DNA from: Girardia tigrina
Taxonomy: Eukaryota
DNA: 50,095 bases
Reading direction: 5' to 3'
NCBI GenBank assembly: GCA_001938485.1
Contig: MQRK01226795.1
Coordinates: forward strand, 24,680 to 74,774
In this document: in pieces, positions 4,512-42,466 of the stretch
Numbering within the stretch: the stretch's first letter is position 1
Layout: each line of letters opens with the position of its first letter
Made by a program: the position numbers and the translations under genes
Notes under the pieces: model-generated
Databases searched by the model: none
The model's input: only the letters and a program-made list of their open reading frames with translations
Told to the model about the DNA's origin: nothing

Positions 4512-5492
4512 GGTCGTGGGGCCAATTTATAGGAGAATTTCGTACCATAAATCTGGCTGGCGTTTCTGCGCCATCCCTATCATACATGCGTCAGATTTTA
4601 CCATAGAATGCATCATGTCAATTGGAAAATTATCTACTTTAAAATTACTTTTGTTAATCACCAGCATCCGGGCCCATGAGGATGCGGTCCAAAATTCAAG
4701 CTCCCAATCGTCAGTTGTGGTCATTTGAACGCCAAATGGTTTCGCGCTGCGCATCCAATCAATAATTTTAGTCCGCAAGAGGACTTTTTCTCGTTCTCTT
4801 TCTTCACCATACGGTCGAATTCTTGTTTCTCTGCGAATGGAATTCTGTACTGATGATGAAGAACATGAATTCGTAAAAATCCGGGGATATTCCCGAGAAT
4901 TATTAATAAATTTCTCATTATCCGTATCATTGACAATGAAATTAGTAAAGTTTAAATGATTTTGCCAGTCTTTTGTGGATGTAAAACTGATTGATAATTT
5001 CTCTTTGGAGATCGATTCAAAATTATCCGATTTAACAGATGTGATGGGATGTCCGGTTAAAATCGACGGATATATCCACAGAATCTGGTAGATTTGCGAG
5101 CGGATGGTAAAATCTTTATTTAAGTTACCATTGAAATTCAAATAGAATTGTTGTCCGGCTTGGGTGGATGCGAATTTCATATTATTTTTTTTCATTTAAT
5201 TTAATAATTAAGAAATCAATCGATAAAACCTTTTATTGGTTATCAAACTGTAATTCAAATTAATACAGTTAAACAACTAACATTATTAATCAAATTTTCC
5301 TTTTTTTTACATTTTTATCTTTTTCTTAATAACAAAAGTAATTTTAAGTAAATTCATTTTTTTTCTCTTTCTTTTTAACGATAATTTCTTTAAATAAATA
5401 TAAATATATATATGATCATTGGAATTGGAATTAAATTTCAATTCCAAATTTTTATTTTAAATTTCGATCTCGAACATCAATAATCTCCAACA
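4512..5492 (-). mobile_element. LTR-like cassette carrying a host-like ORF, lying between the two halves of gypsy gag
   Basis: Minus strand starts TGTTGGAG (5492), about 300 bp mostly AT-rich, a 222-codon ORF, then ends ...CCCCACGACC (one mismatch from CACGACA). No TSD is visible. Confidence 0.6.
4527..5195 (-). CDS. 222-aa uninterrupted ORF, probably a mosaic; contains a nuclear-receptor LBD helix 3-5-like segment
   Basis: ATG-to-stop ORF without introns. LLRTKIIDWMRSAKPFGVQMTTTDDWELEFWTASSWARMLVI resembles the LBD signature (hhxWAKxhPxF..DQ..LL..W.ELhhh). No DNA-binding domain and no C-terminal LBD helices. Expression unknown. Confidence 0.45.
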   Translation of the reverse strand: MKKNNMKFASTQAGQQFYLNFNGNLNKDFTIRSQIYQILWIYPSILTGHPITSVKSDNFESISKEKLSISFTSTKDWQNHLNFTNFIVNDTDNEKFINNSREYPRIFTNSCSSSSVQNSIRRETRIRPYGEEREREKVLLRTKIIDWMRSAKPFGVQMTTTDDWELEFWTASSWARMLVINKSNFKVDNFPIDMMHSMVKSDACMIGMAQKRQPDLWYEILL

Positions 5493-6221
5493 TCTGAAAA
5501 TCGTCAATTGCAAAAGCAGATTTTGTGTTTTTTAATGGCATCCGGTAACCATTTTATCACAGCGTATTTAACCCATTCATCACTCGCTTTCATGTCAATT
5601 TAATGAACCAACCATTTGATATTGGCACGTACACGTCCACGAGTTCTTCCTCTGTCTTCCTCCTGCAGCATAGTTCTTCAAATGCCGTAGCCCTGTCAAC
5701 ACAGAACGCTTTCTCCATCAGTTTCTCGTAATCATATTTCTCGTCATATGATAGTCCTTCATAAACAATAAAGGCTCACTTTGACAGAAACAGAGACAAC
5801 ATTAACTTCAATTCCGTTAACTTTTTTTTATTTTACACTGAAATATATGTTATGAATATTTGAACAATAAACCAACATTATTAAGAAATCATAAAAATAA
5901 GTGATATTTTAAGTTGTAAAAATCTACCACAAATCTATCAAATACGTAATTTTAAGTGATCGTCACTCAAGTGACAGAATTCAAAAAAACGTAAAAGTAC
6001 ATTTCTCACAGTTCAATTTGTTAAATGAATTAATTTTATAGATTCTAAATGAATAATTTCTATAAATTGTAAAAATAACAAATATTGAGAAAACAAATAA
6101 TCATTTTCTAAAAACTTTCAGTTTGTTTAAATCGTTCATTTTAATTAATTTTTAAACACTGAAATTTTAAATAGATTAATTTATGACAAATTAAGATTTT
6201 TTTTAACAATAACCAAAACCA

Positions 6222-6429
6222 ATGAGTTCTTTATTGTTTCGACGAATTTGTTGTCATGGTATTCATAAAAGAGGAATTTCCAAGCATCCTTATTTCAAAG
6301 AATGGGCGCATAATTTCGTTGCGAAATTGGAACCGCAAGAAATCGAATTGTTGAAATCGGAAATCAATAAATTGAGCGTTTCTCAAACTCATTCTGATAC
6401 GACCGTTTCGTTTTCTAACCTCAGAAAAA
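6222..6429 (+). CDS. TMEM65: TMEM65 exon 1
   Basis: MSSLLFRR...AHNFVAKLEPQEIELLKSEI...SFSNLRK; donor GTTTGA at 6430; 47-nt intron follows. Confidence 0.85.
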
Positions 6430-12400: not shown

Positions 12401-13128
12401 TAGCGCATTAAATCATAGTTATCACTACTCTCTTACAGATGACATAACTACCGCTAGAGTAACAAAATTGAATAGAATATATCAATGTGGTCATTATCTT
12501 TAAGTACTATTTTAACAAGTGGTTGAATTTCATCAGTTATTTCATATAATTTGTAATAAATAATCTTTAAATAAAAAGGTTAGTTAAAACCGAACAATAT
12601 TTTTTGAAAACAAGTAAATAGACCAAGAAATATAATTCTAGTTATTAAATAACATTAAATTTATCAATATGTATCTAAGTGCTGATCTCCTGTCCACATA
12701 GGACAGTATGGAGATTTTCAAATTTAAGAGCATACATCAAACAAGATTTGACCAAATTCTATTCAAATTTCAATGTGTTTAATTTGAATTTAAAAAATGT
12801 ATGGTTAATAAACAAGAAAAACATATACTAGAAAAAATTATTAAGTCTAAATCAAAGTTATTTTTTTTCACTTCGGATCCATGGCGGTGTTCATAATTTA
12901 TAAAAATAACTAGATTTTCTTATCGAAAATAAAAAAACAACGTACATTTTATTAATTATTTTATGTCTAAAATAATCTTGTTCTTTAAATGCCTTTGTCG
13001 TGTTCACCAAATCTTATCAGCAGCAGCAACCAATTAAGAGTTTTCCTAGGTTATAATTAGTTTAATTTTTGATTTTTTTAATTATTTAAAATGTTTTAAT
13101 TGGATTTACGGTCGGCGTCCACAAAACT

Positions 13129-13188
<60 letters not shown>

Positions 13189-16100
13189 NNNNNNNNNNNN
13201 NNNNNNNNNNNNNNNNNNNNNNNNNNNNNNNNNNNNNNTATATATATAAATTACTTTTTAGGTAAAAATAAAATAAAATTTTCATTTTATTATTAATCTT
13301 CTTTGCTATAGTATTATTGATTAATTTTCAACAAATAACGACTTTTAGAGTTAAAATGGAACAATTAAGCAATATGTTATTCATATATTTATACATTTAA
13401 CAAAAAGGTTTTTATATACTCACACCATTGGATTAATTTTTAGTCAAAATATTTTGTTCACAATTTATTACAAAAGGCAATGTTTAAATTTTCGATGCTC
13501 ATATTTTAGACTTATAAAAAGTTTTTAGACAACAATATTATCAAATTTAATTTTAACTAAAATTAAAAGACAAATTATTTTTCAAGTAACAGGTTGTCTG
13601 CGATCCATTCGTAATAGTGGACGCTACTCAAGCATTCTTGTGTAAGTACTTTCAGTTTGCTCGTAATCATATTTGTTGTTCTTTTTAAAAATATTTTAAA
13701 CATTTTTGTAACATAAAATACTTCTATATTAAAAAAAATATTTTTATATACAAAACATTCGTTCTTATCACATGTCCTTAAGTAACTAGGGAATTAATTA
13801 GTTATACGAGTATGAATAGAAACGATAAATAATTTTAAAGAAACTAAATTTAATTATTTGACTAATTTGGACATTCCTAATCGTCATTATCGGTCCTAAA
13901 CTAACCAAAACAATAATAATTAATTTCCTGCAACAAACTTGTAGATATTAGAAAAGAATGGGCATTTTAAAAATTCTGGTGTTTTATAATACATGATAGA
14001 AAGAATGTGCAGAGATTCATCTTGAGAAAGGAGTTGTTTGAGTTAAAGGAATCTGAGATCTTTTATGAATAGTTTTCGATTTATAAATATTTAAAATTAA
14101 GCATTGTTTTTTACTAATCCTGTACTTATAAAAATTATTAATTGAGTAAAAAAAACGATTAACTTGGACAAAAATATATAAATACTTGTCATTTTATCAA
14201 GAGTAGTGAAGAATGCAATTAAGATATATTAAGGAACAGTCAGATATGATTATATTTTAACAAGAGGACGTGTGACTCTCCATAATTTACACAAAACGAG
14301 GTTACCTCTAAGTGATTTCTATGATACAAAATTTATTTCCAAGACTTGCAAATATAGAAGTCATACTATAGGGAAATTCTAAAAATTGAGTTTTTAAATA
14401 TTGGGTTGGCCAAAAAGTCATTCCGTTTTTGAGTACGTCCTAATAAAAAGCCTGAAAATATAAAACGATGTGATAAAATTTAAATTCAATTATATATTCT
14501 GAAACCTTAATTTTCAGACTATGTTTATACAAAATATTAATTNNNNNNNNNNNNNNNNNNNNNNNNNNNNNNNNNNNNNNNNNNNNNNNNNNNNNNNNNN
14601 NNNNNNNNNNNNNNNNNNNNNNNNNNNNNNNNNNNNNNNNNNNNNNNNNNNNNNNNNNNNNNNNNNNNNNNNNNNNNNNNNNNNNNNNNNNNNNNNNNNN
14701 NNNNNNNNNNNNNNNNNNNNNNNNNNNNNNNNNNNNNNNNNNNNNNNNNNNNNNNNNNNNNNNNNNNNNNNNNNNNNNNNNNNNNNNNNNNNNNNNNNNN
14801 NNNNNNNNNNNNNNNNNNNNNNNNNNNNNNNNNNNNNNNNNNNNNNNNNNNNNNNNNNNNNNNNNNNNNNNNNNNNNNNNNNNNNNNNNNNNNNNNNNNN
14901 NNNNNNNNNNNNNNNNNNNNNNNNNNNNNNNNNNNNNNNNNNNNNNNNNNNNNNNNNNNNNNNNNNNNNNNNNNNNNNNNNNNNNNNNNNNNNNNNNNNN
15001 NNNNNNNNNNNACTCGATATGTGGTTACCACATGAACTGAAAGAAATTCATTTGGTGAAACGTATAGACATTTGCGATTCCCTTTTGAAGCGAGAACAAA
15101 GTGATCCATTTTTGAAGCGCTTGATAACGGTTGACGAAAAATTGATTGTTTACAACAATGTGGAACGTCGACAATCATGGACAAAACGTGGTGAGCCTGT
15201 CAAAACGATCCCAAAAGCAGAAATTCACCAAAAGAAGGTTATGCTTTCTGTCTGGTGGGATTTTAAAGGAATTGTGTTTTTGAACTCTTTCCGAGGAATG
15301 AAACCATCAATTCAGACAGGTATTGCTGGAGAAATTGCCTCATTCAATTCAACAGGAACGTCCTGAATTGGCAAATTGAAAAGGAGTTGTAATTCAGCAT
15401 GATAACGCAAGACCGCTTACAAGTTTGACCACTCGCCAGAAACTCTTATCATTGGGTTGGGAGGTTTTGCCGCACCCACCGTATTCTCCAGACTTGGCCC
15501 CGTCGGATTTTCACTTATTTAGATCATTGCAGAATTCCTTAAACAGAAAAACATTCGTCAGTGATGATGACATCAAATCGTTCCTAGACGGCTTTTTTGC
15601 TGACAAAGGCAAAAGGTTTTTATGAATCAGGAATAATGAAGCTACCGGAAAGGTGGAAGAAAGTGATTGAAAATAATGGACAGTATATCGTGTAAAAATA
15701 TTTGTGCATCCATGTCATTTTTTGATAATAAATATTTTAGTAAAAAACGCAATGACTTTTTGGTCAACCCAATGTCTTGTGAAAAAGATACACTGACTTA
15801 ATTGCTTCTATTTATTTACTAATTATGTGATAATTTACAATTATGGGGATCAAGAACCAAGTGCTGGTCACAATTAGTAAACAGGATCAAAGGTGGTGCT
15901 GTACATGTTCGAAAAGAATGGAAATTCAAAGAGCTAAATGAAACCTTTACGGACACATGAAGACCTTCATTCAAAAATTTTGAAGCACGCCTGATGGAGT
16001 TCTAATGAGAAACGATTTTATTGCTCTTTCAGATTGTAATACTCATACTGAACGAATTTGATCAGACCATAATTCTTTATCATTGTAGATCAGAAGTAAT

Positions 16101-22600: not shown

Positions 22601-25600
22601 ATATCGCAAATTAAGTATGAAGAGAACATCAAAGAATTGGTGAAGTAATTCTGTTATCTGGGTAATATATTGATGAGTGATGATTGCAAACGAAAATCAA
22701 TGATACGATGGACGATAAGAAAACTAAAAAAAGCTACCATGAATCTAAAGTTATAGTGTTTCCATTGTATCCAAGATTTTCTTTATAGTTTATAACGACT
22801 GCAAGATTACTATTATACTTGTACACGCATGTCTCTCAGAAAACCTCAACTCAATAGAATCCTTAACAGGGAGCTGAAGATTGATTAAATTAAAGCAAGA
22901 ATGATTCTTGTTTAAAAACGTATTATATTGTTTGCTTTATATTATATGAAAATTACATGGGAATGAATGTAAATGAGGTCAAGCGAGTTCTAAACTCTGA
23001 AATGATATAAAAAGCAACTGATGAGGGAAAGTCTGTCCGGTGACATGTTTTGAGTTTTCTGTGATGTTGAAGATCTCGCGGAATAAAGAAAAAGTCTCTA
23101 TTCGAGAGGTGGTTTCGATAACAATGAGATGTCAAACATATGTTTAAAGGCACTATAACAATTAAGGAGATTATTGAGCAAGGAGATAAATATCCAAAAA
23201 TGATAAAGCCGCGTAATGCAAAGATTAAATACGTTTAGTTTAATATATATAGTTCTATGATGCTAAGTTTAAGAAAAGTACCCTATATTACTTAAAATAT
23301 TGGATTTAAAATAATAATAAGTTGTAGTTTTTATTATCTTTTTTATTACATTTAAACTTTTTATTCGTCATTAATAATGATTTTTTTTACTTTAAAAATG
23401 TAAAAAGTTGATCTTATTTTTTGACTTTATAGATCATTTTTTGACCTTATTTTGACTTATTAAAAAAAATGTAACCTTATTTTGACCTAAACATTACAAC
23501 TCTAAAATGGAAAAAGAATAAAACAATTATAAAATTTATTATTATACATTGCTATTATGTAAAACACAACGTTTTTAGAGTTAAAATTCCTATTTTTGGC
23601 AAGCAATTTACCGAGAAGAGAAAAACTTCTCTCTACACAGGCCGATGTTGGTTGACATTTTAATAAGAGAGCATAATCAGCTGGAGAAACAGTGTCTGAT
23701 TCCATTTTGAAAAGTCTAACAATATAGTTTTTTTGCAAGCAATTTTCTATGTACTGCTTAATTTTGACTGGATCATTGCCAAAACTGAGAGATTTTATCT
23801 GTGAGTAAAGATCTTCGATTGTGTAGGTTGAAAGTTCAGCAAATGTAACCAAATCATTAATTGGAAGATATGTTGAACATATTTCAACGAGATTTTGAGC
23901 AAGATTAGTGGATTGAATAGATTCTTTTGCTTTAGCAACTATGATGCCATCTCTATCGACAGATAAAACAATCCTTTTTACAGCTGGTAGATTTTGTGAA
24001 TAGTAATGAGCTACTGACAGCCAAGACCCCCACCTTGTAACAACTGGCTCAGGTGGACTTCCTATATTAGAGAATAAGTCCTTTCTACCTTTATTTTTAA
24101 TAGTAAGTGCTTTAATACTTGATATGAGATTGTCAACATCTTTATAATATGATTTGATCATAAGTGCACAATTGTGGAGTAAATGAGCTAAACAACTAAT
24201 ATGAAAGATATTTGGGTGCAGAATTTTGATAGTTTCACCTGCTTTGGTCATGTATCGAGCTGCATCCGATATTAGTAGCAGTAAATTATTTCTTGATATA
24301 TCAAACTTGCGAAGATTGTCATCAGCGATTTGAGCGATAATATTGGCATTTGGACTAGAATCTATAGGCCTGCAATCAATAAGAAAGCATGAAGATGGAA
24401 TAGAAATATCTCCGGTCAGTGTATTGACATATTTTTGGCTGTTAATATCAGATACATCTATAACCAAGAAAACCTTTTTGTTGTGAATCTTTCCTTTATA
24501 CCTTTCAGTATATTCTGACATATAAGTTCAACCGCTGATCTACACTTTGAAACTGAAGGCAATGGATTGTTCATGCTAGTACAAAGCTCTTTAATGCTTT
24601 GCTGATGAATTTTTTACAGCGGTATATCAGCTTGCATAAAGCTCTAGTAACTTGATAAGCCCATGAACCCTCTGTTAGTGCTTCATATAATGACAATGTT
24701 GATTGATTTTGAGGTTTTAACAATTTGTCATGCTTTAGACTGTTTCTGTGGGAAGCAACAAAAATTTTTTTTCGCAATTCACAATACAGTGGCACAACTT
24801 ACAGTTAAGCTGATCCCTAAAATTTGTAAATTCGTCTGGATATCTGCTAACTATTTCTTTGACTTTGCTAATGCACTAGATTTCGTTTTAGGCATCTTAA
24901 AACTAGATGAAATATAGAAATTTAAGTATAAAAAACAGAATTACTTTTTATCTGGCAATTTTGAATAAATTTTAAATTATTCAAATTAAAACAAATTTTT
25001 ATTTTACTTTAAATTAAAAAAAAATTTATTTTAAAATTATATTTTTTAATGCTAAATTATGAAAGTTAGACCCGTTTTTTTGTAACTTTGATTTTTGACT
25101 TTATGGCAAAAAATACCGTTATTATCATTTATTAGATTAAACAAATTTGACTTTTAAATTTTTTTTCACTTTATTGACTTATTAAAGAAATTTTTGACTT
25201 TATTGATCTAATAAAATGTCAAATAAGGATTATAAATTCATTTAAATTGCATTTTTAAGCTTTTCAGATTAATCTATTTTAATTTTTAATTTTGACTTTA
25301 TGGCAAAAAATCGCCCTAGTCATTATATTATGCGATGTGCGAATAAGGGAGAATATTTAACTAGTACTATTGCGATGGTGGGTGCTTATAAAATATCCCA
25401 ACCCAATTTTTAATTTTTTTGACGAGTCCGGTTTGAAACACGAGGTCTGATCTCTTGTTGAAAACAAATACGAGCCGTGTTTATACCACTAACACGCCAA
25501 GCGCATGAACATGGTCTAATTGGGACAAAAAATTTCAGAGGTATTGGTTTGACTACGCGGAAAGAGTTCCCAGTGAACATGTCCCCATGCCATCCACTAA

Positions 25601-28368: not shown

Positions 28369-29694
28369 CAGTGCTTTTTGTCTAGTAAAAAGGTTTGGAA
28401 ACTCCTTTTATATCTGTTTTTACCTTATGTCAGAAAGTACTATAATTGAATTTTTCCACTGAACACAAATTTATTTTACAGGAAATTTAAAGACATAAGC
28501 GCTTTTATAAAAAAATGAGAAACTCAAATAGTTTATTTATAATGAAAAACCGACATGACTAAAGTTTAGGTGGAAAAATCAAAAATGTATTCTATTGTAT
28601 TATGATACTGTACCGTATTAGGCTTTAAAACAACTTCCAGAGTTTTGTCATGCTTTCATCAGACAAATCATCTCGATTTCTTTTCTTGCTTTGTGAGTTT
28701 ACAGCTGAATGTTTACCTTGAAGCAGCCAAGAGTCTACGTACTTTGTAGGATCAAAATATGTTAGTGGAGGGCCGACCATTCTGATGAATAAAAGTGCCG
28801 AGACTGTTTTTGTCATAAGCGAAGCTCTCGTTGGGCGGGTTATCAAATTCATTTGTGAGAATTCCATTTCACACTCGCTGGAAGAAATGGAAATTGTATT
28901 AAGAGCATGTATCAGCGGAAGAATTCTTTCAGAATATATTATTTCCGTAAGATAATCACGGAATCCATGAATGTTTTCTCTTGCGTTAAGTTGCAGTCTG
29001 CTACACAATTTCTCAATTTCCGCTTCTCCAAATGTCAACTGGTTGTTCATGTTATCTGTCCAATGGCTCTGATCTAGTATGCTAGTCCATTGACTTAGTT
29101 CAACATCCTCATTAGACAATAATCTTTTCGCAATTGATTTGCTAAGTTTCTCGTAAAAGACATTTGCATCAATAGGAGGGTCATTTTTGCAGTTTCTGTT
29201 GTGTAGTACTATTTCATTAAATATTAGATGCTCAGCAGCTGTTGTTGCACTCCTGTAGTATGGGCCTGGATTTTCCCTTCGTTCCACGAACACCTGTACG
29301 AGTGATTTTATTTTTTGATTCGCTTTGTAAAGATTCATGTTTCACTGCTGTAGGTCCAAGCTCAATTCAGATAACTCTTGAAGAGCATCACACATCAGAC
29401 CAAGATCCATAACAAATTCAGTTGATGCTATTTTCTTCTTCAAACCTTCATATGTACATTTCTCATTATTACTTCTTGTGGGATCAGTAATTGCTTCTTC
29501 AAAATGATTTACCAGAGCAGCATAATTATTCCACACTGCACGGAAACTTGACGAAACCCATCGCGTACTTAATACCCGTCTAATTTTTAATAACTCTACT
29601 TCAAGTAATTTAGCACATGAATATAGTTCTCTACTATTTCTTGGAGAAGCATGGTATATTACGTATAGCTTATCAAGGAATGATTTAAATCTAT
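28369..29694 (-). mobile_element. 5'-truncated hAT transposon (KIAA1586-like transposase)
   Basis: NRFKSFLDKLYVIYHASP, LSTRWVSS, DLGLMCDALQELSELSLDLQ, dimerisation domain SSSECEMEFSQMN (CERGFS degenerate); terminus CAGTGCTTTTTG at 28369. Confidence 0.88.
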
Positions 29695-30174
29695 TGACCG
29701 GTCAACTGAGTTTGAACGATGTGGGTGAGAGAATCACAAAACACCGGGGAAGGAATAATAGGTCCAAATGAATCACAAAGCGAAAAACAATCCACAAAGT
29801 ATAATTTCACAGACATCGATGATTTATTTAATACAATCATGAGACTCATCAAAGTTGATTTACGATTGAAAATTATTCTTCACGTTTTTTTCAGTTTCAT
29901 CATTTTTAGGTTATTTAAACATTTTTTTTAATTTATCTTTAAATTATTTTCATTCTAATTTAAGCATTAATTTAAGCACACCAACGATTAATGAATTCAC
30001 AATTTATTTGCAATTGTCAAGTTTTCTTTTTTTTTGATTAAAGAAGATACTAAATATTTATGAATAGAATAATTTGTGATTTTGGAGAATTTATAATTAA
30101 TTAAAAGATTATTTTTTCTTTTTTTTAATTTTCAATTTTTCAACCGAAAGAGCGGAGCGTCGGAGGTGGGGTCA
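29695..30174 (-). mobile_element. 480-bp LTR-like cassette between the hAT and gypsy remnants
   Basis: Termini TGACC...GGTCA; GC-rich start, AT-rich block, ATG at 29903, frame open to the end apart from one TGA at codon 8; no TSD or PPT. Confidence 0.5.
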
Positions 30175-30249
30175 GTGAAGTTTTGTGAGACTGGGTGTGT
30201 GAGATCCACAATCCGATGTCCATTTGGAAAAAGTGACCCCTTATCTTTG

Positions 30250-31147
30250 GATTTGGCTGAGTGTTTCGTGATTGTCGTCGTCCTTTAAACGCGGTGCTGG
30301 TTTTAATTTTTTCTATGTTTATGGTTCGTGGATTCCAGTTTACGTCTATGGATACTGTGTTGGTTGTTTGATTGAATGATATCACGCGGTGAGGGTCTGA
30401 GTATCGCATTTTTAAAGACGATTGATTCTCTGTCTTGAGCCATACGAATTGGGAATCGAACAAAGAAGGCGGTATGTGAATGTTCCATAAATGGTTGTTT
30501 GTGGTGGTTGTATCCAGGTTGGCAAAGTGTTTTCTGGCCATTTGGATTTGAACATCCGAGGTTGGATTATCATTGAAGAAAATTGATATTTTTCTGGTTT
30601 TATCTGTAGTTTGTGAGTCTGGAGTCTGTGCAGGACATCTGCTAGATGACTGCGGTGTTCTTCTGCGTTGCGTGATGCTATGATTATATCATCAATGCAT
30701 GCTACTGCGAAGTCCAATCCTTGTAGCACGGTGTCAATGTGCCGTTGAAATGTTTTTGACGTTACAGAGGGACTCCAGAACTGTGGTGACTCTGGTGAGG
30801 AATACTGATGGAGTACTGTTGGTTAATGAATGTGATGTGAAATACTTCTTGAATACTTCGAAAGAAGTATGTGAATTAAGGTGATGCTTTAATTCGTTGT
30901 AGGGCTCGTTGGCTGTCGAAATGTCACTCAATTTGTTTGCGATGGATTGAAGAAGCTCAGATGAGACTATGGATAGAGTGTTGTGAAATAGTGATTGTTG
31001 AGAAGTGATGCGTTGAGACTTGAATCTCAAATCTAGTATTTCAAGCCAACATAGTGGACTGCCTCGTGAGTCTAAGATGTATGGGAATGGTGTTGAAGGA
31101 ATTGATATAGCGTGATTAGAATATTCTCTGATTGATTCCTGATTCAT
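30250..31147 (-). mobile_element. Internally deleted Ty3/gypsy element (gag, RT and integrase-tail pieces)
   Basis: gag PLCWLEILDLRFKSQRITSQ...EPYNELKHHL...TPSVFL; RT GLDFAVACIDDIIIAS..EEHRSHL; GPY/F-like tail SLKMRYSDPHRVI...TINIEKIK. Confidence 0.85.
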
Positions 31148-31229
31148 GCCACCTAGCAGTATAGGGTAAGCCGAGATTTGTGCGTCTTGAAGAATGCCGT
31201 AATGATGTAATGAAAAATGAGAACGTAAA

Positions 31230-32941
31230 GGTTTGAAGCCCGAGGATAACCAAACTGGTTGACCTGAGAGACCAATTCGATATGGAAGAAGTAAAGAAGA
31301 ACAGTAAAAGAGGTAGTGGAGTCATGCATAGAATGCCAAGAAACGAAGACAAGAACTACAAAATCAAAGGAAGAAAATATACAGATAACAGCTTCAGAAA
31401 TGTTCGAAAAGATATACATAAACATTTGTGGACCGTGGAACGAAACAATAAGAAAAGAGAGGTACATTTTCAGAATGATAGACTATTTCAGCAAATATGT
31501 AAGCTTGACAGACATTAAAAGATAGGACAAAGAAACTATTATACAAATTATATTACAAAAATGGATACTAAAATTCGGTGCACCAAAAGAGATACATTTT
31601 GATTGTGGTAAAAGTTTTGAATCGAAAAGAGTTAAAGAAATGTATGAGTCAAGGGGCATTAAACTGATCTTTTCAAGTCCGTACCACCATAATACCAATG
31701 GGATAATTGAAAGGCAATTCTGAACTATTTGGGAGTTCATCCAAACAAGCATTAAAGAGAGAAACTCCTTGAGTTTGGCAGACATACTACCAGAGGTAGA
31801 ATTTGCAATAAACGCTACAAAACAGAAAACGATAGGGTTTAGCCCAGTAGACGTAGTATTTGGGAGGAAAATAGACAGACAAAAATGGCACAGTTACAGT
31901 AAAATGGACAGAGAGAACTTAAGACAAAAGATAAAAGAGAAGAACACGCCGGTGAAAACAGGAACGAGAACAACTTACAAAGTGGATGATAAGGTCTGGA
32001 TTATGAAAGAAATATGAAAGAAAGGCGAAGACAGATTTGAAGGACCTTACGAAATCATTGAAGATTCACGAACAGAGTCATAGACTCAAAGATGAAAATG
32101 ATAAAAAAAATAGTAAGGAATGTAGAGAAATTCAAAAATTTCAAAAACGGGGGGGGATGTTATTACAATAGTAGCTTTTTTTGAGTTCATAAAATTTTCC
32201 AATTTGAAATCTAATCAATTTAATAATTCAATATTTTATATTTCTATTTACAGATTAGGTTAAAATGAGATTTTTATAAAATAGTATAAAAAAAGAATTT
32301 ATATAAAATTAATTTAATATTTAATTTTAATGTGAATATAAAACCTATAAATAGATTTATTAATAAAGTCAATTGCAATTTTATGAAACATAATATTTAA
32401 TTTTTGAGAAATAATAAATAAACTAGAAAACTATTTGGTAACTTTTGATATTAATTCATAAATTTTAAATCAAAAGATAATTTTCAATTTTAATTTTATT
32501 TTTAAAAAGTTATGTTACCGAATCTAAAAAAATAATATTTAAATGATTATGAAAACAAAATGAAAATGTTGTGTTATAGAATGGGGAAATGTAATTGAGA
32601 AACTATTAAATTTAGGAAAATTTAATAAAAGATACAACAAAAACTTTGTGACAAATTTTAATAACTTTATAATTTTCACAAAAAAAGAATAAATTTAAAG
32701 TCCTAATAAATGAAATAACCATATCTATATTTATATTTATTTTTATTTAAAATGGTTTGTGTAAAAAAAGAAAGTGTGAAAGTTTCTAGAAAATATTTGT
32801 TTAAAAAACTTGAATTGTGTTAGAAATAAAGTTTTGCGTTAATGATATCTTCTTTTGATCAAGAACCAAATAATTGTTATAAAAGACAATTCTACTTGTG
32901 ATATTAATAAATGTTGAAAAATCATATTGACGTTGTTAATA
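31230..32941 (+). mobile_element. Ty3/gypsy 3' remnant: integrase, polypurine tract and 3' LTR
   Basis: SCIECQ, INICGP, IDYFSKY, FGAPKEIHFDCG, SPYHHNTNGIIER, FEGPYEII; PPT AAAAACGGGGGGGGA (32143-32157) directly followed by TGTTATT at 32158. Confidence 0.92.
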
Positions 32942-33058: not shown

Positions 33059-33531
33059 GCATTTGAAGACAGTCTTTCCGATGCCGATCAGTTGAGACAA
33101 TAGATTGAGTAAGTCAGCCTTAACATTTTATTCAAATTAAAAGTAGGTTAACGGGATCGATCGACAATCGATATTACTGGGACATGTATATGACTTGAAA
33201 GCCATTCTTAAACATCAGCGTGAGCAAAATCTAGTGAAAGAGAAACATGTGGAAGATCACGTAAATCGCTTCTTAGATTTCGTTTTCCAATTACAAGAAA
33301 TGGATTGTATTTTCTCGACAATTCCTAATATGACCACAATAAATTATTTATTCAACAATTTCTGCCAACAAATTTTTTAACAAAAAAATTTTACCAATTT
33401 TTAACATTTGAACAAATTCACAACTATGAATCACAATTTTTAATTTTTACATTTATTTTAATTAGATAATTTCTTTTAATTCCACAATTATTAGTTTTGC
33501 ATTCAACTAACAAACACAATTCTTCTTTTCA

Positions 33532-33747
33532 CCCTTTCAACACGATTTTTTTATTTCAGTAATCCATGTAATATTATTGCCCAAAATATTTTTGTAATTA
33601 TTTTGCAATAATCTTTTTTATTCAATCTAGTCAAAATAAATTAGAAAAAAATATTTCGGGCTATAATATTACATGGATTAGTGAAATAAAAAAATCGTGT
33701 TGAAAGGGTGTGCTCTCGGACAATATGTTCCAACAGTGTTGAATGGG
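33532..33747. mobile_element. piggyBac-type MITE with a long internal palindrome
   Basis: CCCTTTCAACAC ... GTGTTGAATGGG flanked by TTCA/TTAA; 33530-33710 forms a near-perfect hairpin with arms of about 65-70 bp. Confidence 0.7.
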
Positions 33748-34778: not shown

Positions 34779-35146
34779 ATGTTTTATTTTATTGAAATCC
34801 TTATTGGAATCGTTACATTCTTACGAGCCGAAAATGCAACTGTACGAGTAAGAACTGAATCGTCATGTATTCAAATAAGTTCCGTTTTATACGCCGATTC
34901 ATTTGTATTCGATCTTGGAAGCTCAACCTGCCAAATGTTTTATGTCTTTCCAGGAAACAACACTTGCGGTCCAGTGAGTTATACATCCACGAAGAATGTT
35001 AACAGAACAATTGGTAACAAAACCTTAAATATGTTACCTTAAAAACTGTTTTTACTTAAATATAATTAAGTCTTTTGTGAATTTAACTAATGTTATTTAC
35101 ATCATAAACTGAAGGGTCATCATCAACCGTTTTAGTGCATGACAAA
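34779..35146 (+). CDS. Candidate small secreted Cys-containing protein (possible PAN/apple-like segment); putative exons 34779-35013 and 35115-35146
   Basis: Hydrophobic N-terminus MFYFIEILIGIVTFLRA; C..SFVFD....CQMF pattern; several NxT sequons; donor GTAACA at 35014 and a short in-frame exon ending at GTAAGT (35147). Remainder not resolved. Confidence 0.35.
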
Positions 35147-35718
35147 GTAAGTTTACAATTTATAAAATATAAAAATGATTATATAACTCTTACATACAAA
35201 GTCAAATTCTAAAGTATTATCATTAAAATTTTATTTCCCAGAATTATTTTACAGGAAATTTTCATGGGATTTTTAAACATAATATACATTATAATTTACT
35301 TGGTTGGTAGCAAAAGTTTAGTGCAGAATTATTTTTATCAAGTCTTTTTCTTTAAAGAAGAAATTAAAACTAGAACGAAAAGGTTCAATATTCGAAGGTT
35401 GAAAAATACGAATGGATGTAGAAAAATGTTCTAAAAACACTATTGTGTACGATAACATCGATGTTTTCTGTTGTTCATGTTTCAGTACTACGAATATATA
35501 TTTATTAAACTGTTAATGGGACTACCTTCTGCTAGAAATTTGCCGACATAGTCCTGTATTTTTGCAAGCCCCCCGGATTGCGGTAGGCAATCAATTTGTC
35601 CTGGAATTTCATTTCAATATTGGAACTAACAAGCAAACATTTACAAATAGATTGTATTTACAAATACATTGTATTTCGAATTTTTAATCCATTTTTAATC
35701 CATAATCCAATTTTTAAT

Positions 35719-35770
<52 letters not shown>

Positions 35771-36500
35771 ATANNNNNNNNNNNNNNNNNNNNNNNNNNN
35801 NNNNNNNNNNNNNNNNNNNNNNNATATATATATATATGTGTATATATATTAGGGTGGTCGCAAGAAATCGATGTTGGAATGTCTCTGACGGGAACCCCTA
35901 AAAAGTTGTCAATTGGTATAAAAATGAGAATGTGAAAGTCTCAACTCGATCGGATAAGGTTAAGACCTACCTCATCAGCTCTAAAGTATTAAAATCCACT
36001 GTTTTTTTTCAAAAAATTGAGGATTTTCCGCTATAAAATTAGAACGGCCTATCCTAGGAACTTTTTATTATAGTGTAGTGTAGTGTACATGTACGTATAT
36101 GCGTGCGTATTCGAAAGAAGAAAAAATAAATTTTCTATTCATCGTTATTCCATTGAATTCTGAGCCTTTTATCAATGAGTCAACCTGACAAAAAATGTCA
36201 CGCACACAAACTACAGTGAACTGACTTCTAATTACAAGCAGGTGTTCGAGTGGGCCTACAATGTAGGCCCTACACATAGAGTATGTCAAAAAGGGTCTTT
36301 GTGAGTGAGTGTCTTAGTATGAGACTGTCTTTAATGTTAGGCGACAGTAGCAAGTGTGTGGGTGCTTTTTACTGGGAATTCTCGGAATTGAGTGTACTGA
36401 ATGACTGTTCCTACACGTATATAAGGCTTTTTTGTTCAAGGGTATGTCATTTTCTGTTCATTCCATTGTATTATGAGGTGAGTGTTTCCATCAGAATTTA

Positions 36501-38073
36501 CAGTAGTGCTCAAAAATAACCGGACGCAGTGAAAATTGGCTATATCTCTTGAATGGTATTAAATATATTAATGAAATTTTGCCAAAATGTGTAGCTTAAC
36601 AGTTTGATATCTTTCATAAAAAATTAAATTATTGATAAATCAATAAATTCTTTAATAAAATCTGTTTTTGTAATTCATTTCGCTCATAAATAGTCGGACA
36701 TTTTTTTTGCTCACAAATTCACAACAGTAGTGTTAATATCATTTGATAATGAGATTTCAAACTGGTCCAAGAAAACGTCAATTAACCATTGAAGAAAGAA
36801 AGAATGTTCTAGTGGCTTACAATNGCCTTTTATCTATAAGAAAGACATCTGAGCTTCTCAAAGTACCAAAGTCAACAGTTGGTGACATAAAATTGTCAAA
36901 GGTGCGTGGCACTGCTTCTCAATTGCCAAGATGTGGCCGACCAAGAAAAACTTATAATAAAGAAGATAAAATGATTAAAAGGATATCACAATCGAATCCT
37001 AGACTAACAGCTGTTGATATAAAGTCTGAAATTTCATCTTTTCATGGAATTAATGTTCATGTTTCAACTGTCANNNNNNNNNNNNNNNNNNNNNNNNNNN
37101 NNNNNNNNNNNNNNNNNNNNNNNNNNNNNNNNNNNNNNNNNNNNNNNNNNNNNNNNNNNNNNNNNNNNNNNNNNNNNNNNNNNNNNNNNNNNNNNNNNNN
37201 NNNNNNNNNNNNNNNNNNNNNNNNNNNNNNNNNNNNNNNNNNNNNNNNNNNNNNNNNNNNNNNNNNNNNNNNNNNNNNNNNNNNNNNNNNNNNNNNNNNN
37301 NNNNNNNNNNNNNNNNNNNNNNNNNNNNNNNNNNNNNNNNNNNNNNNNNNNNNNNNNNNNNNNNNNNNNNNNNNNNNNNNNNNNNNNNNNNNNNNNNNNN
37401 NNNNNNNNNNNNNNNNNNNNNNNNNNNNNNNNNNNNNNNNNNNNNNNNNNNNNNNNNNNNNNNNNNNNNNNNNNNNNNNNNNNNNNNNNNNNNNNNNNNN
37501 NNNNNNNNNNNNNNNNNNNNNNNNNNNNNNNNNNNNNNNNNNNNNNNNNNNNNNNNNNNNNNNNNNNNNNNNNNNNNNNNNNNNNNNNNNNNNNNNNNNN
37601 NNNNNNNNNNNNNNNNNNNNNNNNNNNNNNNNNNNNNNNNNNNNNNNNNNNNNNNNNNNNNNNNNNNNNNNNNNNNNNNNNNNNNNNNNNNNNNNNNNNN
37701 NNNNNNNNNNNNNNNNNNNNNNNNNNNNNNNNNNNNNNNNNNNNNNNNNNNNNNNNNNNNNNNNNNNNNNNNNNNNNNNNNNNNNNNNNNNNNNNNNNNN
37801 NNNNNNNNNNNNNNNNNNNNNNNNNNNNNNNNNNNNNNNNNNNNNNNNNNNNNNNNNNNNNNNNNNNNNNNNNNNNNNNNNNNNNNNNNNNNNNNNNNNN
37901 NNNNNNNNNNNNNNNNNNNNNNNNNNNNNNNNNNNNNNNNNNNNNNNNNNNNNNNNNNNNNNGATATCAAACTGTTAAGCTACACATTTTGGCAAAATTT
38001 CATTAATATATTTAATACCATTCAAGAGATATAGCCAATTTTCACTTCGTCCGGTTATTTTTGAGCGCTACTG
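36501..38073 (+). mobile_element. Young Tc1-family transposon of IR/DR type nested in the hATm
   Basis: TA TSD; TIRs start CAGTAG and differ at 2 positions over the roughly 110 bp visible; inner direct repeat GCTCATAAATAGTCGGAC at about 36682; transposase N-terminus with PKSTVGDI, PRCGRPRKT, NPRLTA; catalytic region lies in the N gap. Confidence 0.93.
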
Positions 38074-38211
38074 TATATGTAGTTAACATATGGTAGTTAT
38101 AGGACTAAGCATACTTTTGTTGTTCGTTCAATTCTTTGCAGGGAACCACATCAAAGTAATGTTTCAATATAAGTTTTTAATATTAAATGTTTGTTTTTTA
38201 ATGCTGTAATA

Positions 38212-40618
38212 ATGGAATCACGACCTTCAAAATCGTCGTTTACAGCTTCAAGGATGTCAGTTCCAGGCAGAAAGACAAGATTTTTCTGATTGGATGATGT
38301 CCCATCAAATTAATGGCAGTAAGTTGCCATCCAATAGTGAAGTTTTACGCAGTTTGTTTTACAATAAACGCCAAGTTAAACTATCCAGGAAGTTCTTCTT
38401 TTTTGGCAGAAAGCTAAGATAACTACCAAACATTTAAAGATTGAATTGCGAAGCTTGAAAACTTCACGAGGATTAGAGAAAACTGCAAAAAAATGCAACC
38501 AGAAGCGCAAGTCAAGCTCAAAGTAAGAAAGTGGAAGCTTTTAAGTCAGGGCTTGAAGACCTGTTTGATATTGCACATCAGGACGCACTTAACAACATTA
38601 ATGAATAAGACAAACAGTTTTTGCTCCTTCAGAGACAAAAGGGACCTATTGGCTGTATGGGAGGAGTTGATGTAAAATTCCTACGAGCAGAAGAACGAAG
38701 AGTACAGAGAAAAGCAGCTGAAAGGATGAGACTTAAAAAATCAAAACTGAATCCTATGCGTAAGCCTGAATTGAAGTTTTAGTGTTGTATTTGACACTTA
38801 CCTGCATGTATTCTGTTGTTTTCTAGATGAAGATTTAGAGATGGAATTTTTCAACACAAGCAGTGTCTCAGAAGAAGAGTACATAGAATGGAAGGATCAT
38901 GATGATTTTCAGGACCCAGGTATCGACTCATCACAATCGAAGAAAAGAAAATACTTGCAAAGAAGTCGCGAAATTATTACAGAGAAGTTGTCAGTATTGT
39001 TAGATAGATGTAATATTTCGGATAGAGACGCAGTTAGAATTGTTTCGGCTACTGCCGAAGCATTAGGGCAAGATCCACAGAAGTTAACAGGCAGTAGATC
39101 CACCGTACGACTCCGCAGACAGAAATTTCGAGAGGAAAGAGTAAAGATTATTAAGAATAGGTTTAAAAATTTAGATTTACAAGGTGCTGTCGTACACTGG
39201 GATGGGAAATTTCTGTCACATATATTACATAAAGAAAATGTAGAGAGGTTTGCAATTTTAATAAGTTGTGGTGATGAAGAGCAGTTGATAGGAGATCCAC
39301 AGATGGAAAATAATATGGGGTGTAATCAGGCAAAAACTGTTTTTTCTGAAGTGAAAAAATGGGGGCAGTAAAGAAAAAATAGAAGCAATGTGTTTTGACA
39401 CTACTGCTACCAATACTGGTCGTTTGAAAGGGGCCTGTGTTTTATTAGAACAGTTATTTGAAAAAGATCTTTTATATTTGGCATGTCGCCACCACATCTT
39501 AGAAATAATACTGAAGGAAGTTTTTGATTGCAAAATGGGTTCAACTACTACCCGTCCACCTGATATTTTTAAAAGATTTCAGACAGGATAGTCCAAAATT
39601 GAAAAAAGAAAATATAAAATTGGTCTTCATGATGAACAGACGAAATTAAAAATAAATGTGGTTGATCTCGACCAGATGTATAGTTTTCTTTCAGAGCAAA
39701 TACAAAAACCACGGCATCAGCCCAGAGAAGATTATAAAGAATTTTTACAGTTGTGTTTTATTTTTTTAGGCCGTGTTGCTCCATAAAGCATTTCTTTCAG
39801 AGCTCCAGGTGCCATGAATCACGCTATTCGGATGGCAAAAGCCATATACTCCCTAAAAATTTTCATTTTCAGAGATCAATATTGTTTAAGTGACTCCGAG
39901 ACAGATGTCATCAGAAGTATTTGTTTATTCATAATTAATGTTTTTGTCAAAGTATGGTTTAATGATCCTAGAGCTACATTGGCTTCCAACCAAGATTTAC
40001 AGTTGTTGAAAACCTTAATTAATTATGGAAAAATTGATGGAGACATTGCAGAAGTGGCATTGTCTAAACTTATAAATCATTTGTGGTATTTGAACTTAGA
40101 GCAAGTTACTTTCGCCTTTTTTTGATAAAAGTTTAGACAAACAAATCAAAATAAACATGGCTATAAAACTATTGTCTTTTCAGCAAAACAGTGATGATGA
40201 TGAGATAAGTAAGGTCATTGAGCTTGAGGAAGAAAACACAGAAGACACAAGGATAGTTAAAGTCAAAATTGCTTTGAAAGAAGCGCATTCTTTTTTGGAC
40301 AAAGAAGTCGATTACTTTATTACACCAAAAACATTCAACTTCTTCAAAAGGTTTAACATTTCAACTCATTTCTTACATTCCCATCCGGATGTATGGAATG
40401 AAGATCAGGATTTTTTGATGGAACAGAGAATTGTCAACCGTTTCAGGGTTGTAAACGACACAGCCGAAAGGGGTATCAAATTAATTCAAGACTACAATGC
40501 CAGCATAACAAAAGATGAAGAGCCGAAGCAGTATGTTTTGCAAGTAGTTGATGAATATCGAAAATTATTCCCAGATACAACGAAATTTGCCCTCTCAAAA
40601 CCTCTACTGCCTATTTAA
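38212..40618 (+). pseudogene. hATm-type transposase with one intron (38760-38826), multiple stops and frameshifts
   Basis: VVHWDGK, CFDTTATNTG..GAC, LACRHHILE, PREDYKEFL, HAIRMAKAIY, HLWYL, VVNDTAERGIKL; GTAAGC...TTCTAG intron. Confidence 0.9.
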
Positions 40619-41672
40619 TTATGATGACTCAATCTGACAAATCTACTTAGCAATTCGACCAATCTATCTATTTCTTTGTTCTGATAATTTGGATATAAAA
40701 CCTATTCTGATGTTGCTATTTCTTATTCCTGTAGTTTGTGTTTGAAATGTTCAAGTTATTTTTGTCAATTCATTATGGTTTGATTACAATAAATATTCGG
40801 ATTCGTATTTCAATGTTTCCTCCTCCTCTATCGCACTCCTTTTACCTCCCTGGTTGAAAATCTATTTATTAAAAAGCGTCTTACTTCAAAATTGAAGCCA
40901 AGAGTATTCTCTACAAAACTAAATATCCAAGTTTCTAGGATAAACCGTTCAATTTTCTGGAAAAAAAGTTGTTTTTTAATATTTTAAGTCTGAAGAGGCA
41001 GGTCTTAATGTCACCCAATCGAGCTGAAACTTTTACAATCTCATTTTTACATTAATTGGCAACTTTTTAGGGGTTTCCGTCAAAGTTACGACACAAAAAA
41101 ATATTTCTCCGTGTGCCTTGCGACCACCCTAATATATTAAGTTGGGGAAAAAGTAATCCATTATTTTAATTCATTATTTTAATCCATTATTTTAATTCAT
41201 TATTTATTGATCAAACAATTTCAAATTTATGATCTTTGTTAAGGTAACATTTCACAGTAATTTCACAAAATTTTTTTTGCCTTTTTTTATTCAGTTCTGA
41301 GTTACAGGGTGTTAAAAATAGAAGTCAACAAAGAAAATATTCGGTACATTTTACAGTTTTTATTCGATAAAGGAGAAAATGCAAGCCAGGCAGCTGTTAT
41401 TGTGAATGGTGTTTATGGTACCAATACTGTAACAGCTAATTACACGCAAATTTGATTTCGTCGATTCCGTGGAAGCATTTTTGATGTTAAAGATGTACCT
41501 CTTACTGGCAGGCCTATCGCTGAAAATGTCGATAAAATCTCGGCAATGATCAAAGTTGACCGGCATGTGAGTAGTCGTAGTATCGCACAGGAGCTGAAGA
41601 TCGACCGTAAAACGGTTTTAAACCATTTTGGCAAAGCAGGATTCAAAAAAAATTGATGTTTGAGTTCCACAC

Positions 41673-42466
41673 TGACGTGACTAGGGTCACCGATATCGGT
41701 CGCGTGGATTATCGCGTCAGCCCTGGTCACGTTAGATTTGCCGCCAGCGTGACAGAATCCGTTTTTTGTGGTGATTGTTGTTTTCATTGTCACTTTTCGC
41801 GGAATTCAAGGCGAATGGAAGCAGGTCATTTGACCCATCGATTTGACTCGAGCGTTTGGTCGATTCTTCACTCGAATAATTGATTGATCTCGGTTCTTCA
41901 TTGTTTGGATGAAATATATCTGAGATAAATTTCATTTTGGGCGGATTCAATGGATAGTCCATCGGGAATGATCCGTGATTCGCATTCAATCCCCGCGCAA
42001 ATGCGCCATTTAAACCGCCGGTTAGATCGTTTTGATTCGATCTGTTGACAGCGGCGATCGATGAGGGATGAAAAGCACTGGTATATGCACATAGTATATC
42101 ATAGAAAGAACTGACATTTATTGACTAGAAATATATTTGAATTTCATACATTTGTACAAACTTTACTGATTTAATAAAACAAATTTATATCTTCGCAAAT
42201 TACTGTTAATTGTTTTTTTTAGCAATTATTGGGAAACGAAAATTCAATGTTTTTCGGTAATGTTTTTTTTTTGATCATTCAAAAATTTTCAATTGTTTTA
42301 AAAAATTTTTAAATACTCATCTGAATTTTTCAGTTTTAAAAATTTCAGGGGTCGCAAATCCAATTAAGAAATTTTTTCAAAATTAAAAATCAAAAAATTA
42401 AATTACATATCACTTAAAAAACTCTTAATTGGTTGCTACTGCTGATGCGATTTAGTGAACACTACA
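41673..42466 (-). mobile_element. 794-bp solo-LTR-like cassette carrying host gene fragments
   Basis: Minus-strand termini TGTAGTG...CACGTCA; 5-bp TSD CACAC/TACAC; removing it restores mariner GTT CCA CAC CAA TTA (VPHQL); terminus has a relative at 12996. Confidence 0.9.
41902..41971 (-). pseudogene. Captured fragment of a ubiquitin-conjugating enzyme E2 (UBE2G/Ubc7-like)
   Basis: SFPMDYPLNPPKMKFISDIFHPN matches the E2 core motif FPxDYPxxPPKhxF..hFHPN; similarity stops right after HPN, before the catalytic Cys region. Confidence 0.85.

Follow-up and report, generated by a model that had tools for sequence, protein, structure and literature searches.

Retroelements are known to take up host transcripts in several ways, and the accounts given here follow the portions of the cited papers drawn on. 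In animal LTR-mediated retroposition and in maize Bs1, partial spliced mRNAs are captured, with several donors per element (Tan et al. 2016, PMC5131818). Yeast Ty1 has a short 5′UTR, and its primer-binding site (PBS) lies within the gag coding region (PMC5454406). In SVA_F1 (MAST2) and the chimpanzee pt_SVA_D6 (STK40), a spliced host first exon replaces the 5′ part of the element and founds a subfamily (PMC6139936). Planarian Burro/GYPSM1 elements have ubiquitin- and apoptosis-related host domains fused into the Gag polyprotein (PMC6431247, PMC13465017), and in BARE-2, Wis-2 sequence entered the BARE-1 LTR via abnormal template switching (review PMC13317346). Three things are already known separately: LTR elements capture mRNA, gag can start within the LTR (Ty1), and first exons can be trapped (SVA_F1). 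The Ty1 leader is fixed, and SVA elements are non-coding. The literature searched, mostly open papers, contained no description of LTRs that carry host 5′ ends in frame with gag.

The window, the whole stretch of 50,095 nucleotides of Girardia tigrina DNA analysed here (contig MQRK01226795.1, positions 24,680 to 74,774), contains three cassettes (Table 1). In two of the families they represent, the frame leading to gag probably starts inside the LTR, whose middle has been repeatedly replaced by sense, intron-free host pieces likely captured from mRNA. As in Tan et al. 2016, partial spliced mRNAs were captured, with several donors per element and further rounds of copying (PMC5131818). Unlike the retrocopies in the portion of that paper drawn on, which replace an internal ORF, cargo here also lies inside the LTR, and both traced LTR cargos have a 5′UTR and start codon and are in frame with gag (PMC5131818). 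As in Ty1, the 5′UTR would be short and the PBS would lie inside the gag coding region; whereas the Ty1 leader is short, 100–280 LTR codons are involved here and are swapped with host sequence (PMC5454406). The splicing of a host exon to an acceptor in the element would be shared with SVA_F1 and pt_SVA_D6, but SVA is a non-LTR element, whereas exons trapped here must move into the LTR and lead the ORF (PMC6139936). Burro/GYPSM1, from a host that is probably similar, likewise exemplifies LTR elements fusing host domains to Gag, and Burro is a giant Gypsy element (>25 kb) with Gag N-terminal and the extra domains behind it (PMC6431247, PMC13465017). Unlike Burro, the elements here are BEL and Gypsy elements of ~5–7 kb, with the cargo lying within the LTR, ahead of Gag. 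BARE-2 resembles our cargo A and L354 in having foreign retroelement sequence in an LTR, but its insert is not host mRNA, and an in-frame link to gag is not described in the part of the review drawn on (PMC13317346).

All three cassettes were multi-copy (40 candidates scored for each) and, as an earlier note on this DNA had proposed, share a layout of an AT-rich block followed by a frame that runs to the 3′ end; the frame is GC-richer than the block. They are LTRs of multi-copy retrotransposons and not the miniature TG...CA elements offered there as an option: gag and pol lie between paired LTRs, and every cassette represents a single LTR from a larger element that bears gag. Among full solo copies, a perfect 5-bp TSD was found in 11 of 14 for family 1 and in 12 of 22 for family 3, and a TSD matching at 4/5 positions in a further one and eight, respectively. 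In four family-1 elements (L206, L207, L213 and L216), the two LTR ends were present together with a TSD; the LTR pairs of L207 and L216 were 96–99% identical. Family 1 has the TG...CA LTRs, PBS, polypurine tract and short TSD of BEL/Pao elements, and its domain order was DUF1759 gag followed by DUF1758 protease, RT, Peptidase_A17 and integrase (L102, L212; Peptidase_A17 at 4.5e-45 in the BEL pol of L212). Most family-1 copies lacked pol. The LTR-to-PBS spacer was 2 nt in 32 of 35 matches, and L419 contained a tRNA-iMet-like piece (CAT anticodon) complementary to the family-1 PBS; at the loci examined, ARAGORN detected no complete tRNA gene. Family 3 was assigned to Ty3/Gypsy on its LTRs, PBS, TSD and the order RT-RNaseH-integrase (L320, L330), which L320 combines with a TSD; its gag matched DUF7041 at 4.9e-4, below the cut-off. 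In an open-spacer search, the family-3 spacer was 3 nt in all six PBS copies, and this PBS, which we take to be Leu-like, had 45-nt tRNA-like extensions in four copies. Two RNA runs from one public study contained a small share of family-1 words, which is no evidence of expression.

Table 1. Features of the three cassettes and their surroundings in the window.
Feature	Position	Strand	Remarks
Family-1 solo LTR (cassette 1), BEL/Pao, 854 bp, TG...CA	4623..5476	-	Ends from copies; other copies have paired LTRs and BEL pol
Left 5-bp TSD copy of cassette 1 (ATTGA)	5477..5481	-	
Right 5-bp TSD copy of cassette 1 (ATTGA)	4618..4622	-	
AT-rich block common to all family-1 LTR variants	5196..5476	-	AATAAA at LTR nt 240
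191-codon frame, open up to LTR end	4623..5195	-	
Cargo-A head	5041..5183	-	
Terminal 304 nt of a different LTR family	4737..5040	-	Embedded in frame
Family-1 constant LTR 3′ end	4623..4725	-	Common to cargo A, BTB and RWD variants
Decayed gag/protease/RT-like target of cassette-1 insertion	3251..4617	-	Motifs by eye
Decayed family-3 5′ terminus, fragment	12996..13110	+	Right limit approximate
Family 2, truncated Gypsy 3′ LTR (cassette 2)	29697..30141	-	Lacks polypurine tract and TG start
Decayed Gypsy internal region, DUF7041 gag and RVT_1	30142..31321	-	Upstream of cassette 2
Family-3 solo LTR (cassette 3), Ty3/Gypsy, 794 bp, TG...CA	41673..42466	-	TSD 4/5
Remainder of 'MDNQ' module, sense	41972..42088	-	Frame shared with E2 piece
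Exon 3 of host UBE2G2-like gene, final 70 nt	41902..41971	-	Stops exactly at splice donor
Remnant of 'MSDEEP' LTR variant	41817..41901	-	Begins directly past that variant's AG
Family-3 constant LTR 3′ end	41673..41729	-	

Cassette 1 was flanked by a perfect 5-bp TSD, with ATTGA on either side. Its copies put the terminal TG at 5476 and the CA at 4623, and not at the previously given limits of 5492 and 4512. The 222-codon frame reported for it is sound for the 191 codons inside the LTR, while the remaining 31 are flanking DNA; in 5′ LTR copies this frame runs on across the PBS. The AT-rich block is likely U3-R. The head of cargo A had relatives at three more distant loci, one bearing an LTR-type tail, and donor searches gave no host donor. 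The other LTR family embedded behind it has its own 5-bp TSD in L027. An NR-LBD-like piece had been suspected in this cassette. We rejected this reading, since the motif spans the junction of two LTR-derived modules and no NR-LBD was found with Pfam, PDB, Atlas or a HMMER search covering 1.84 billion representatives. In the target region of the insertion, the single ORF scanned had no Pfam match.

The ends first given for cassette 3 (42466 and 41673, TSD 4/5) were correct, and the related terminus noted elsewhere in the window proved to be a family-3 terminus, from 12996 on the plus strand. The E2 core piece recognised in this cassette is genuine, with a Pfam UQ_con match at 2.3e-7 and 70 nt (41971–41902) at 97% identity to the host exon. 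The ATG proposed for the cassette meets a stop after 8 codons and is not the family-3 start, because this copy lacks the ~150 nt that carry the start codon and has a frameshift close to its 3′ end. In other variants, an Arf-family fragment lies in frame and has the constant 3′ end of family 3 as its tail. A donor of the MDNQ module was not found among the seven of 150 matches inspected.

In families 1 and 3 the LTR ends were constant and the middles exchanged, and the cargo lies, as had been claimed, inside true LTRs whose ends stay constant through multi-copy families. The middles included UBE2G2, CUX1, Arf, AAA, BTB, RWD and pieces of other LTRs. The expectations that interiors would match unlinked host genes piece by piece and that cargo junctions would be sense and mostly in frame were borne out. 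Two donor genes were traced, UBE2G2 and CUX1; both captures comprised the 5′UTR, the start codon and the first exons, with the introns removed exactly. For UBE2G2, the 5′UTR and exons of 43, 82 and 119 nt were present, and the donor introns of 46 nt and ~6.6 kb were absent from the LTR. This donor, on a contig that stops 76 nt past exon 3, was found with a full-length homolog as the query and was missed by a Pfam E2 family search. The 3′ joint of the UBE2G2 piece lies at the exon's GT, joined to an AG in the LTR, and fits splicing; in another LTR variant, CAG precedes the partner sequence. Such an end, with a host splice donor joined past an element AG as in SVA_F1, was seen in this one case and not at the CUX1 3′ joint, which is mid-exon with 4 exact bases and loose similarity. 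The CUX1 5′UTR starts at LTR nt 269, 17 nt past AATAAA, the introns are absent, and the cargo has a 51-nt in-frame GT..AG loss. An exact AATAAA near the junction was confined to family 1 and some family-3 variants; the E2 and MDNQ variants diverge ahead of the motif. The AAA piece is apparently mid-protein. No donor was found for Arf (8 of 128 matches fetched for context, plus the 10 best loci), for RWD (only a 51% paralog with a RING behind the RWD) or for BTB among the matches listed, which were element copies; the BTB variant had at least 150 matches.

The host pieces in the LTRs were likely copied from messenger RNA. LTR elements holding part of a host mRNA without its introns, as in the LTR-mediated retroposition of Tan et al. 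2016, were found, and replacement of an internal ORF between the LTRs was found for CCDC149 only and not for the LTR cargo. The introns and inverted or hairpin ends of Pack-MULE and Helitron captures were not found: the introns are gone and LTR hallmarks are present. The internal regions also hold captures of LRR, HSP90, ubiquitin and CCDC149; the last of these takes the place of pol in family 1 and is exactly of the type in Tan et al. 2016, going by the portion drawn on (PMC5131818).

Of the LTR ends, 38 of 61 in family 1 and 34 of 57 in family 3 were reached by a stop-free run of at least 100 aa in a single constant frame; the other two frames gave 0/61 and 0/61 for family 1 and 1/57 and 0/57 for family 3, the copies being related and hence not independent. 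For these two families, a frame running to the LTR end is more than chance. The frame opens past the AT-rich block, exits the LTR and crosses the PBS towards gag. It was unbroken from the LTR start codon via the PBS into LRR in L209, was interrupted by one stop and one N gap between the LTR and the DUF1759 gag in L102, and entered the gag region with one stop in L326; a fully unbroken LTR-to-gag frame was seen in no copy. The free-standing translated LTR of the earlier note was not supported: the frame enters the element's gag ORF through the PBS, and would therefore be the element's own translation start. In-frame start codons also occur at or past the PBS, so the LTR frame is not the sole possible start. 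The cargo is likely kept in frame because gag translation would start inside the LTR.

In a six-frame Pfam comparison, 13 of 63 sense segments matched (11 inside LTRs) and none of 63 antisense; four of the 11 LTR matches were in a different sense frame in the scanned copy. Shared deletions were in frame in 7/7 cases (p 4.6e-4), of which two may be one event, with one more that could not be classed, and private deletions in 6/15. The length from start codon to end was a multiple of three in 14/17 CUX1, 4/8 Arf, 4/7 RWD and 1/3 E2 rows, with some insertions represented by more than one row. For the UBE2G2 piece, pN/pS was 0.29 for shared and 1.07 for private variants (Fisher p 0.0085), values without transition-bias correction of which only the contrast is usable. 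Third positions accounted for 42% of shared and 34% of private variants (contrast p 0.11), and codon-level selection outside the E2 piece is weak.

We propose that in families 1 and 3 the LTR middles were replaced repeatedly, the capture likely occurring during reverse transcription, and that the cargo would occupy U5 behind a short AT-rich U3-R; the start site, poly(A) site and U5 are predictions from the letters. A host 5′ end would join the element RNA by splicing into an AG of the LTR, as the UBE2G2 case suggests, or through template switching at a short stretch of similarity, as for CUX1. Minus-strand synthesis would reach the host 5′ end and then jump to the element 3′ end, so that the new leader would be copied into both LTRs. 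An out-of-frame start codon there would open an upstream ORF, lowering gag output or making the RNA unstable, and mainly in-frame captures would therefore spread. Repeated rounds would give layered mosaics, and LTR–LTR recombination would leave solo LTRs such as those in the window. The cargo peptide would most likely be a passenger N-terminal extension. A bolder, tentative possibility is that the LTR may serve as an exchangeable leader cassette, with BEL and Gypsy elements systematically adopting host 5′UTRs, starts and N-terminal domains, trading them and being selected for the leader. Selection might then act on the translation control or function of the new leader, for example a myristoylated Arf N-terminus as a matrix-like signal, and every solo LTR would be a promoter plus host start exon, a possible seed of a chimeric gene.

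Capture into the LTR, as we propose it, would be an exon-shuffling route with the cargo written into the LTR itself. Because of this position, the cargo is doubled in each cycle and persists as hundreds of solo LTRs, which carry a promoter, a host 5′UTR and a start codon. Captures in two unrelated superfamilies of one genome point to a host property and not to one odd element. The system allows direct tests of N-terminal domain gain by LTR elements and of a filtering of captures through cis-selection on gag translation. In practice, annotation will take these repeats for truncated host paralogs, and RNA, piRNA and RNAi reagents designed against the donors will cross-map to them.

The captured N-terminal pieces might instead have been selected as proteins on Gag, for membrane targeting or as ubiquitin-system decoys. 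The Met-Gly start of the Arf piece (membrane targeting), the recurrence of ubiquitin-pathway pieces (E2 cut before the catalytic region, BTB, RWD, ubiquitin), the avoidance of amino-acid change among shared variants of the UBE2G2 piece and the many matches of the BTB variant are consistent with this, as are the apoptosis and ubiquitin domains of planarian Burro elements (PMC6431247, in the part drawn on), one of which is reported as functional (likewise PMC13465017). We nevertheless consider it unlikely, since the cargo is freely replaced, truncated and deleted, the domains are only fragments, the codon signal is weak in modules other than the UBE2G2 piece, and cargo A is built from the sequence of other LTRs. 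Unrelated modules keep their frame relative to the LTR end and PBS, and shared deletions are in frame whereas private ones are not, which argues against ordinary template-switch capture at random places (Tan et al. 2016), where the frame bias would reflect young age and the choice of terminal ORFs, and not gag-tied selection. Random capture would explain the internal captures, including CCDC149 in place of pol, and the mid-exon CUX1 joint at short similarity, and 14 of 17 young retrocopies were in frame with the parent protein in the portion of that study drawn on (PMC5131818). The presence of a 5′UTR and start codon in both traced LTR cargos, and a UBE2G2 joint without the G expected from a switch at the shared CAG, make it quite unlikely.

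Host exons at 96–100% identity in hundreds of copies would suit a main role as small RNAs against host genes, or a shelter from silencing by resemblance to host mRNA; this is very improbable, as concordance of frame and strand with gag is not predicted by it. The assembly is fragmented and the window is rich in DNA transposons, which could suggest DNA-level capture of the Pack-MULE or Helitron kind or an assembly artefact. Both are contradicted by the exact intron loss and by the presence, at numerous independent sites, of TG..CA ends, a PBS, a polypurine tract and 5-bp TSDs, and are hardly conceivable.

Cassette 2 was rejected as a carrier of host cargo: family 2 gave no Pfam or PDB match and no third-position excess, and thus no codon signal. 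The cassette is the 3′ LTR belonging to the Gypsy element at 30140–31321. Neither the TG (30174) nor the CA (29695) previously taken as its ends is a true terminus, as the TG start is deleted and the 3′ half was lost at a hAT junction at ~29697. No family-2 PBS was found after 15 LTR ends. At full length, the family-2 LTR is ~825 bp, and the family was assigned to Ty3/Gypsy on an LTR with TSD and a polypurine tract adjoining DUF7041 gag and RT.

Cassettes 1, 2 and 3, the three minus-strand units of the window described as TG...CA cassettes in the earlier note, were each multi-copy in the genome and belong to LTRs of a BEL/Pao family (family 1) and two Gypsy families (families 2 and 3), respectively. 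Their ends were set by comparing flanks among copies. Cassette 1 had a perfect 5-bp target site duplication (TSD), and the ends assigned to it in the earlier note lay 16 and 111 nt too far out. Of the 222-codon frame described there, the last 31 codons were flanking DNA. For cassette 3 the proposed ends were confirmed, with a TSD of 4/5; this copy lacked approximately 150 nt including the family start codon and was also frameshifted. Cassette 2 was the 3' LTR of an adjoining Gypsy element, with the polypurine tract and TG start deleted and the 3' half cut by a hAT element. Among full solo copies, 11/14 of family 1 and 12/22 of family 3 had a perfect 5-bp TSD. A nuclear receptor (NR-LBD) piece, previously suspected in cassette 1, found no support. 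The earlier observation of LTR-like cassettes with in-frame host pieces was partly confirmed.

The LTRs of each family shared their ends and differed in the middle, the cargo. Family-1 LTRs had approximately 285 nt (5') and 100 nt (3') in common, and between these stretches lay cargo A (the middle of cassette 1), a BTB piece, of which two lengths occurred, or an RWD piece. Family-3 LTRs shared approximately 165–270 nt (5') and 40–60 nt (3'), with UBE2G2, CUX1_N, Arf, AAA_5, BTB or unassigned modules in between. No host gene was traced for cargo A of the window; 304 nt of this cargo were the 3' terminal part of a fourth LTR family, in frame. The cargo-A head recurred in more distant loci (L424–L426), and in the LTR family of L027 and L028 a frame again ran to the LTR end; together these suggest a widespread layout. 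In L354, a family-1 BEL LTR was joined in frame to a family-2 Gypsy LTR end. The Arf cargo of L323 and L386–L395 began with Met-Gly, which may be a signal for myristoylation leading a predicted Gag fusion, and its tail was the constant family-3 LTR end. The RWD cargo had many relatives at 40–70%; in L400 and L439 it resembled the N-terminus of a ligase, which we take to be RNF14-type, cut just before the RING.

Two donor genes were traced. The first was a UBE2G2-like gene on contig C247025. Of this gene the UBE2G2 LTR variant contained approximately 75 nt of the 5'UTR and three exons (43, 82 and 119 nt), without the introns (46 nt and approximately 6.6 kb), and stopped at the exon-3 GT. In another LTR variant, which has a start codon of its own, CAG stood just before the sequence that follows the joint, and the expected prefix was present in 42/44 pattern matches (15 inspected). 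A switch at the shared CAG would have left a G that the joint lacked, which makes splicing the best fit. Of UBE2G2-like exon 3, the window retained the last 70 nt (97%). The second donor was a CUX1-like gene on contigs C240103 and C148618. Its 5'UTR started at LTR nt 269, 17 nt past AATAAA, and the capture was intron-free; an in-frame loss had also removed a 51-nt GT..AG stretch, and the 3' joint lay mid-exon at a short similarity. Donor searches for Arf, RWD, BTB, the family-3 module MDNQ and the cargo-A head found none.

A single fixed frame of at least 100 aa was open to the LTR end in 38/61 family-1 and 34/57 family-3 ends, and the other two frames almost never were in the same ends. This frame crossed the primer-binding site (PBS). 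In L209 it ran gapless and open from the start codon in the LTR to within the LRR. In L102 it was kept as far as gag, interrupted by one stop and one N gap, and in L326 it reached the gag region with a single stop; a fully intact LTR-to-gag frame was found in none of the copies examined. Further in-frame start codons occurred at or after the PBS. Start-to-end lengths were multiples of three in 14/17 CUX1, 4/8 Arf, 4/7 RWD and 1/3 E2 rows, some of which repeat a single insertion.

The elements themselves were ordinary BEL/Pao and Gypsy members. Behind family-1 LTRs, the PBS gave 35 exact matches (spacer 2 nt in 32/35) and was complementary to a tRNA-iMet-like piece. L206, L207, L213 and L216 had both LTR ends and a TSD. 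The usual interior order was LRR, unassigned block, ubiquitin, DUF1759 gag, pol stub, CCDC149 piece and polypurine tract, with an HSP90 piece as alternative first module; L212 had a BEL pol behind the same LTR. Family-3 elements encoded a DUF7041-like gag and RT-RNaseH-integrase, L320 had a TSD, and the PBS is presumably Leu-type. In L294, L297, L305 and L335, the PBS just after the LTR was extended by approximately 45 nt that followed a Leu-type tRNA with its CCA, as would result from over-copying of the primer. The two LTRs were unequal in cargo length in L206 (1635 vs 557 nt) and L320 (5' LTR of 118 nt). Family-1 words made up a small share of two RNA runs, which does not show that the family is expressed.

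In established LTR replication, U5 forms the 5' end of the element RNA and is the part copied first once synthesis has been primed. Based on the position of AATAAA and on where the host 5'UTR begins, the AT-rich block would be U3 plus a short R, and the remainder of the LTR U5. From these sequences, it is likely that a host 5' end joins U5, is copied into both LTRs and is then filtered for frame. The joining would occur by splicing or template switch; the joined sequence would be copied to the cap end, jump to the element 3' end and so enter both LTRs. This route predicts sense orientation, 5'-anchoring and layering, which were seen in the traced cases. The frame would be filtered because the first start codon then belongs to the cargo.

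A six-frame Pfam scan covered 126 segments, taken from 27 diverse LTR copies, and gave matches in 13/63 sense and 0/63 antisense segments. Two of the 13 were internal CCDC149 sequence; of the 11 in LTRs, seven were in the gag frame and four in another sense frame. Deletions common to several insertions were in frame in 7/7 determined cases (p 4.6e-4), a count in which two may be one event and which leaves aside one case without a frame call; private deletions were in frame in 6/15. The pN/pS of the UBE2G2 piece was 0.29 for shared vs 1.07 for private variants (p 0.0085). Five pooled stretches gave a weak third-position signal (42% vs 34%, contrast p 0.11), absent in family 2. We regard a functional cargo as unlikely and capture without selection as quite improbable, while the source of small RNAs raised in the earlier note seems very improbable. 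Capture with filtering for frame remains our preferred reading, and the earlier interpretation of a translated exon-shuffling LTR is supported in part.

The capture of host gene starts inside the LTR, in frame with gag, is a variation on known capture types. Published accounts describe captures internal to elements (Tan et al., PMC5131818), a PBS within gag in Ty1 (PMC5454406), first exons trapped by splicing in SVA_F1 and pt_SVA_D6 (PMC6139936), foreign element sequence in the BARE-2 LTR (PMC13317346) and host domains fused behind Gag in Burro (PMC6431247, PMC13465017). The portions available of PMC11410931, PMC3118150, PMC4558846 and bioRxiv 10.64898/2025.12.11.693146 made no mention of LTR-borne host cargo. 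The combination was not found in the literature searched, supplements and Repbase entries aside.

The genome is 1.43 Gb in a fragmented assembly, and the window is AT-rich and crowded with decayed transposons, features that would suit a planarian-like host.

Features of the window
Feature	Position	Remark
Cassette 1	5476-4623	true span
Decayed DNA transposons (mariner/Tc1 and hAT-like)	14503-15366, 23502-24527, 28625-29701, 36496-38078, 38775-40618, 42629-43150	
GC-rich tandem units of 21/42 bp	49284-49520	inside inverted-repeat element
Inverted arms flanking the tandem units	46888-47008 / 49646-49766	

Cassette 3 lay just upstream of the mariner ORF at 42629. Units resembling the GC-rich tandem repeats also occurred upstream in L062. 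At least 150 UQ_con (E2) matches were present in the same genome, most uninterrupted over nearly the whole domain and frequently with several on one contig, which amounts to an expansion.
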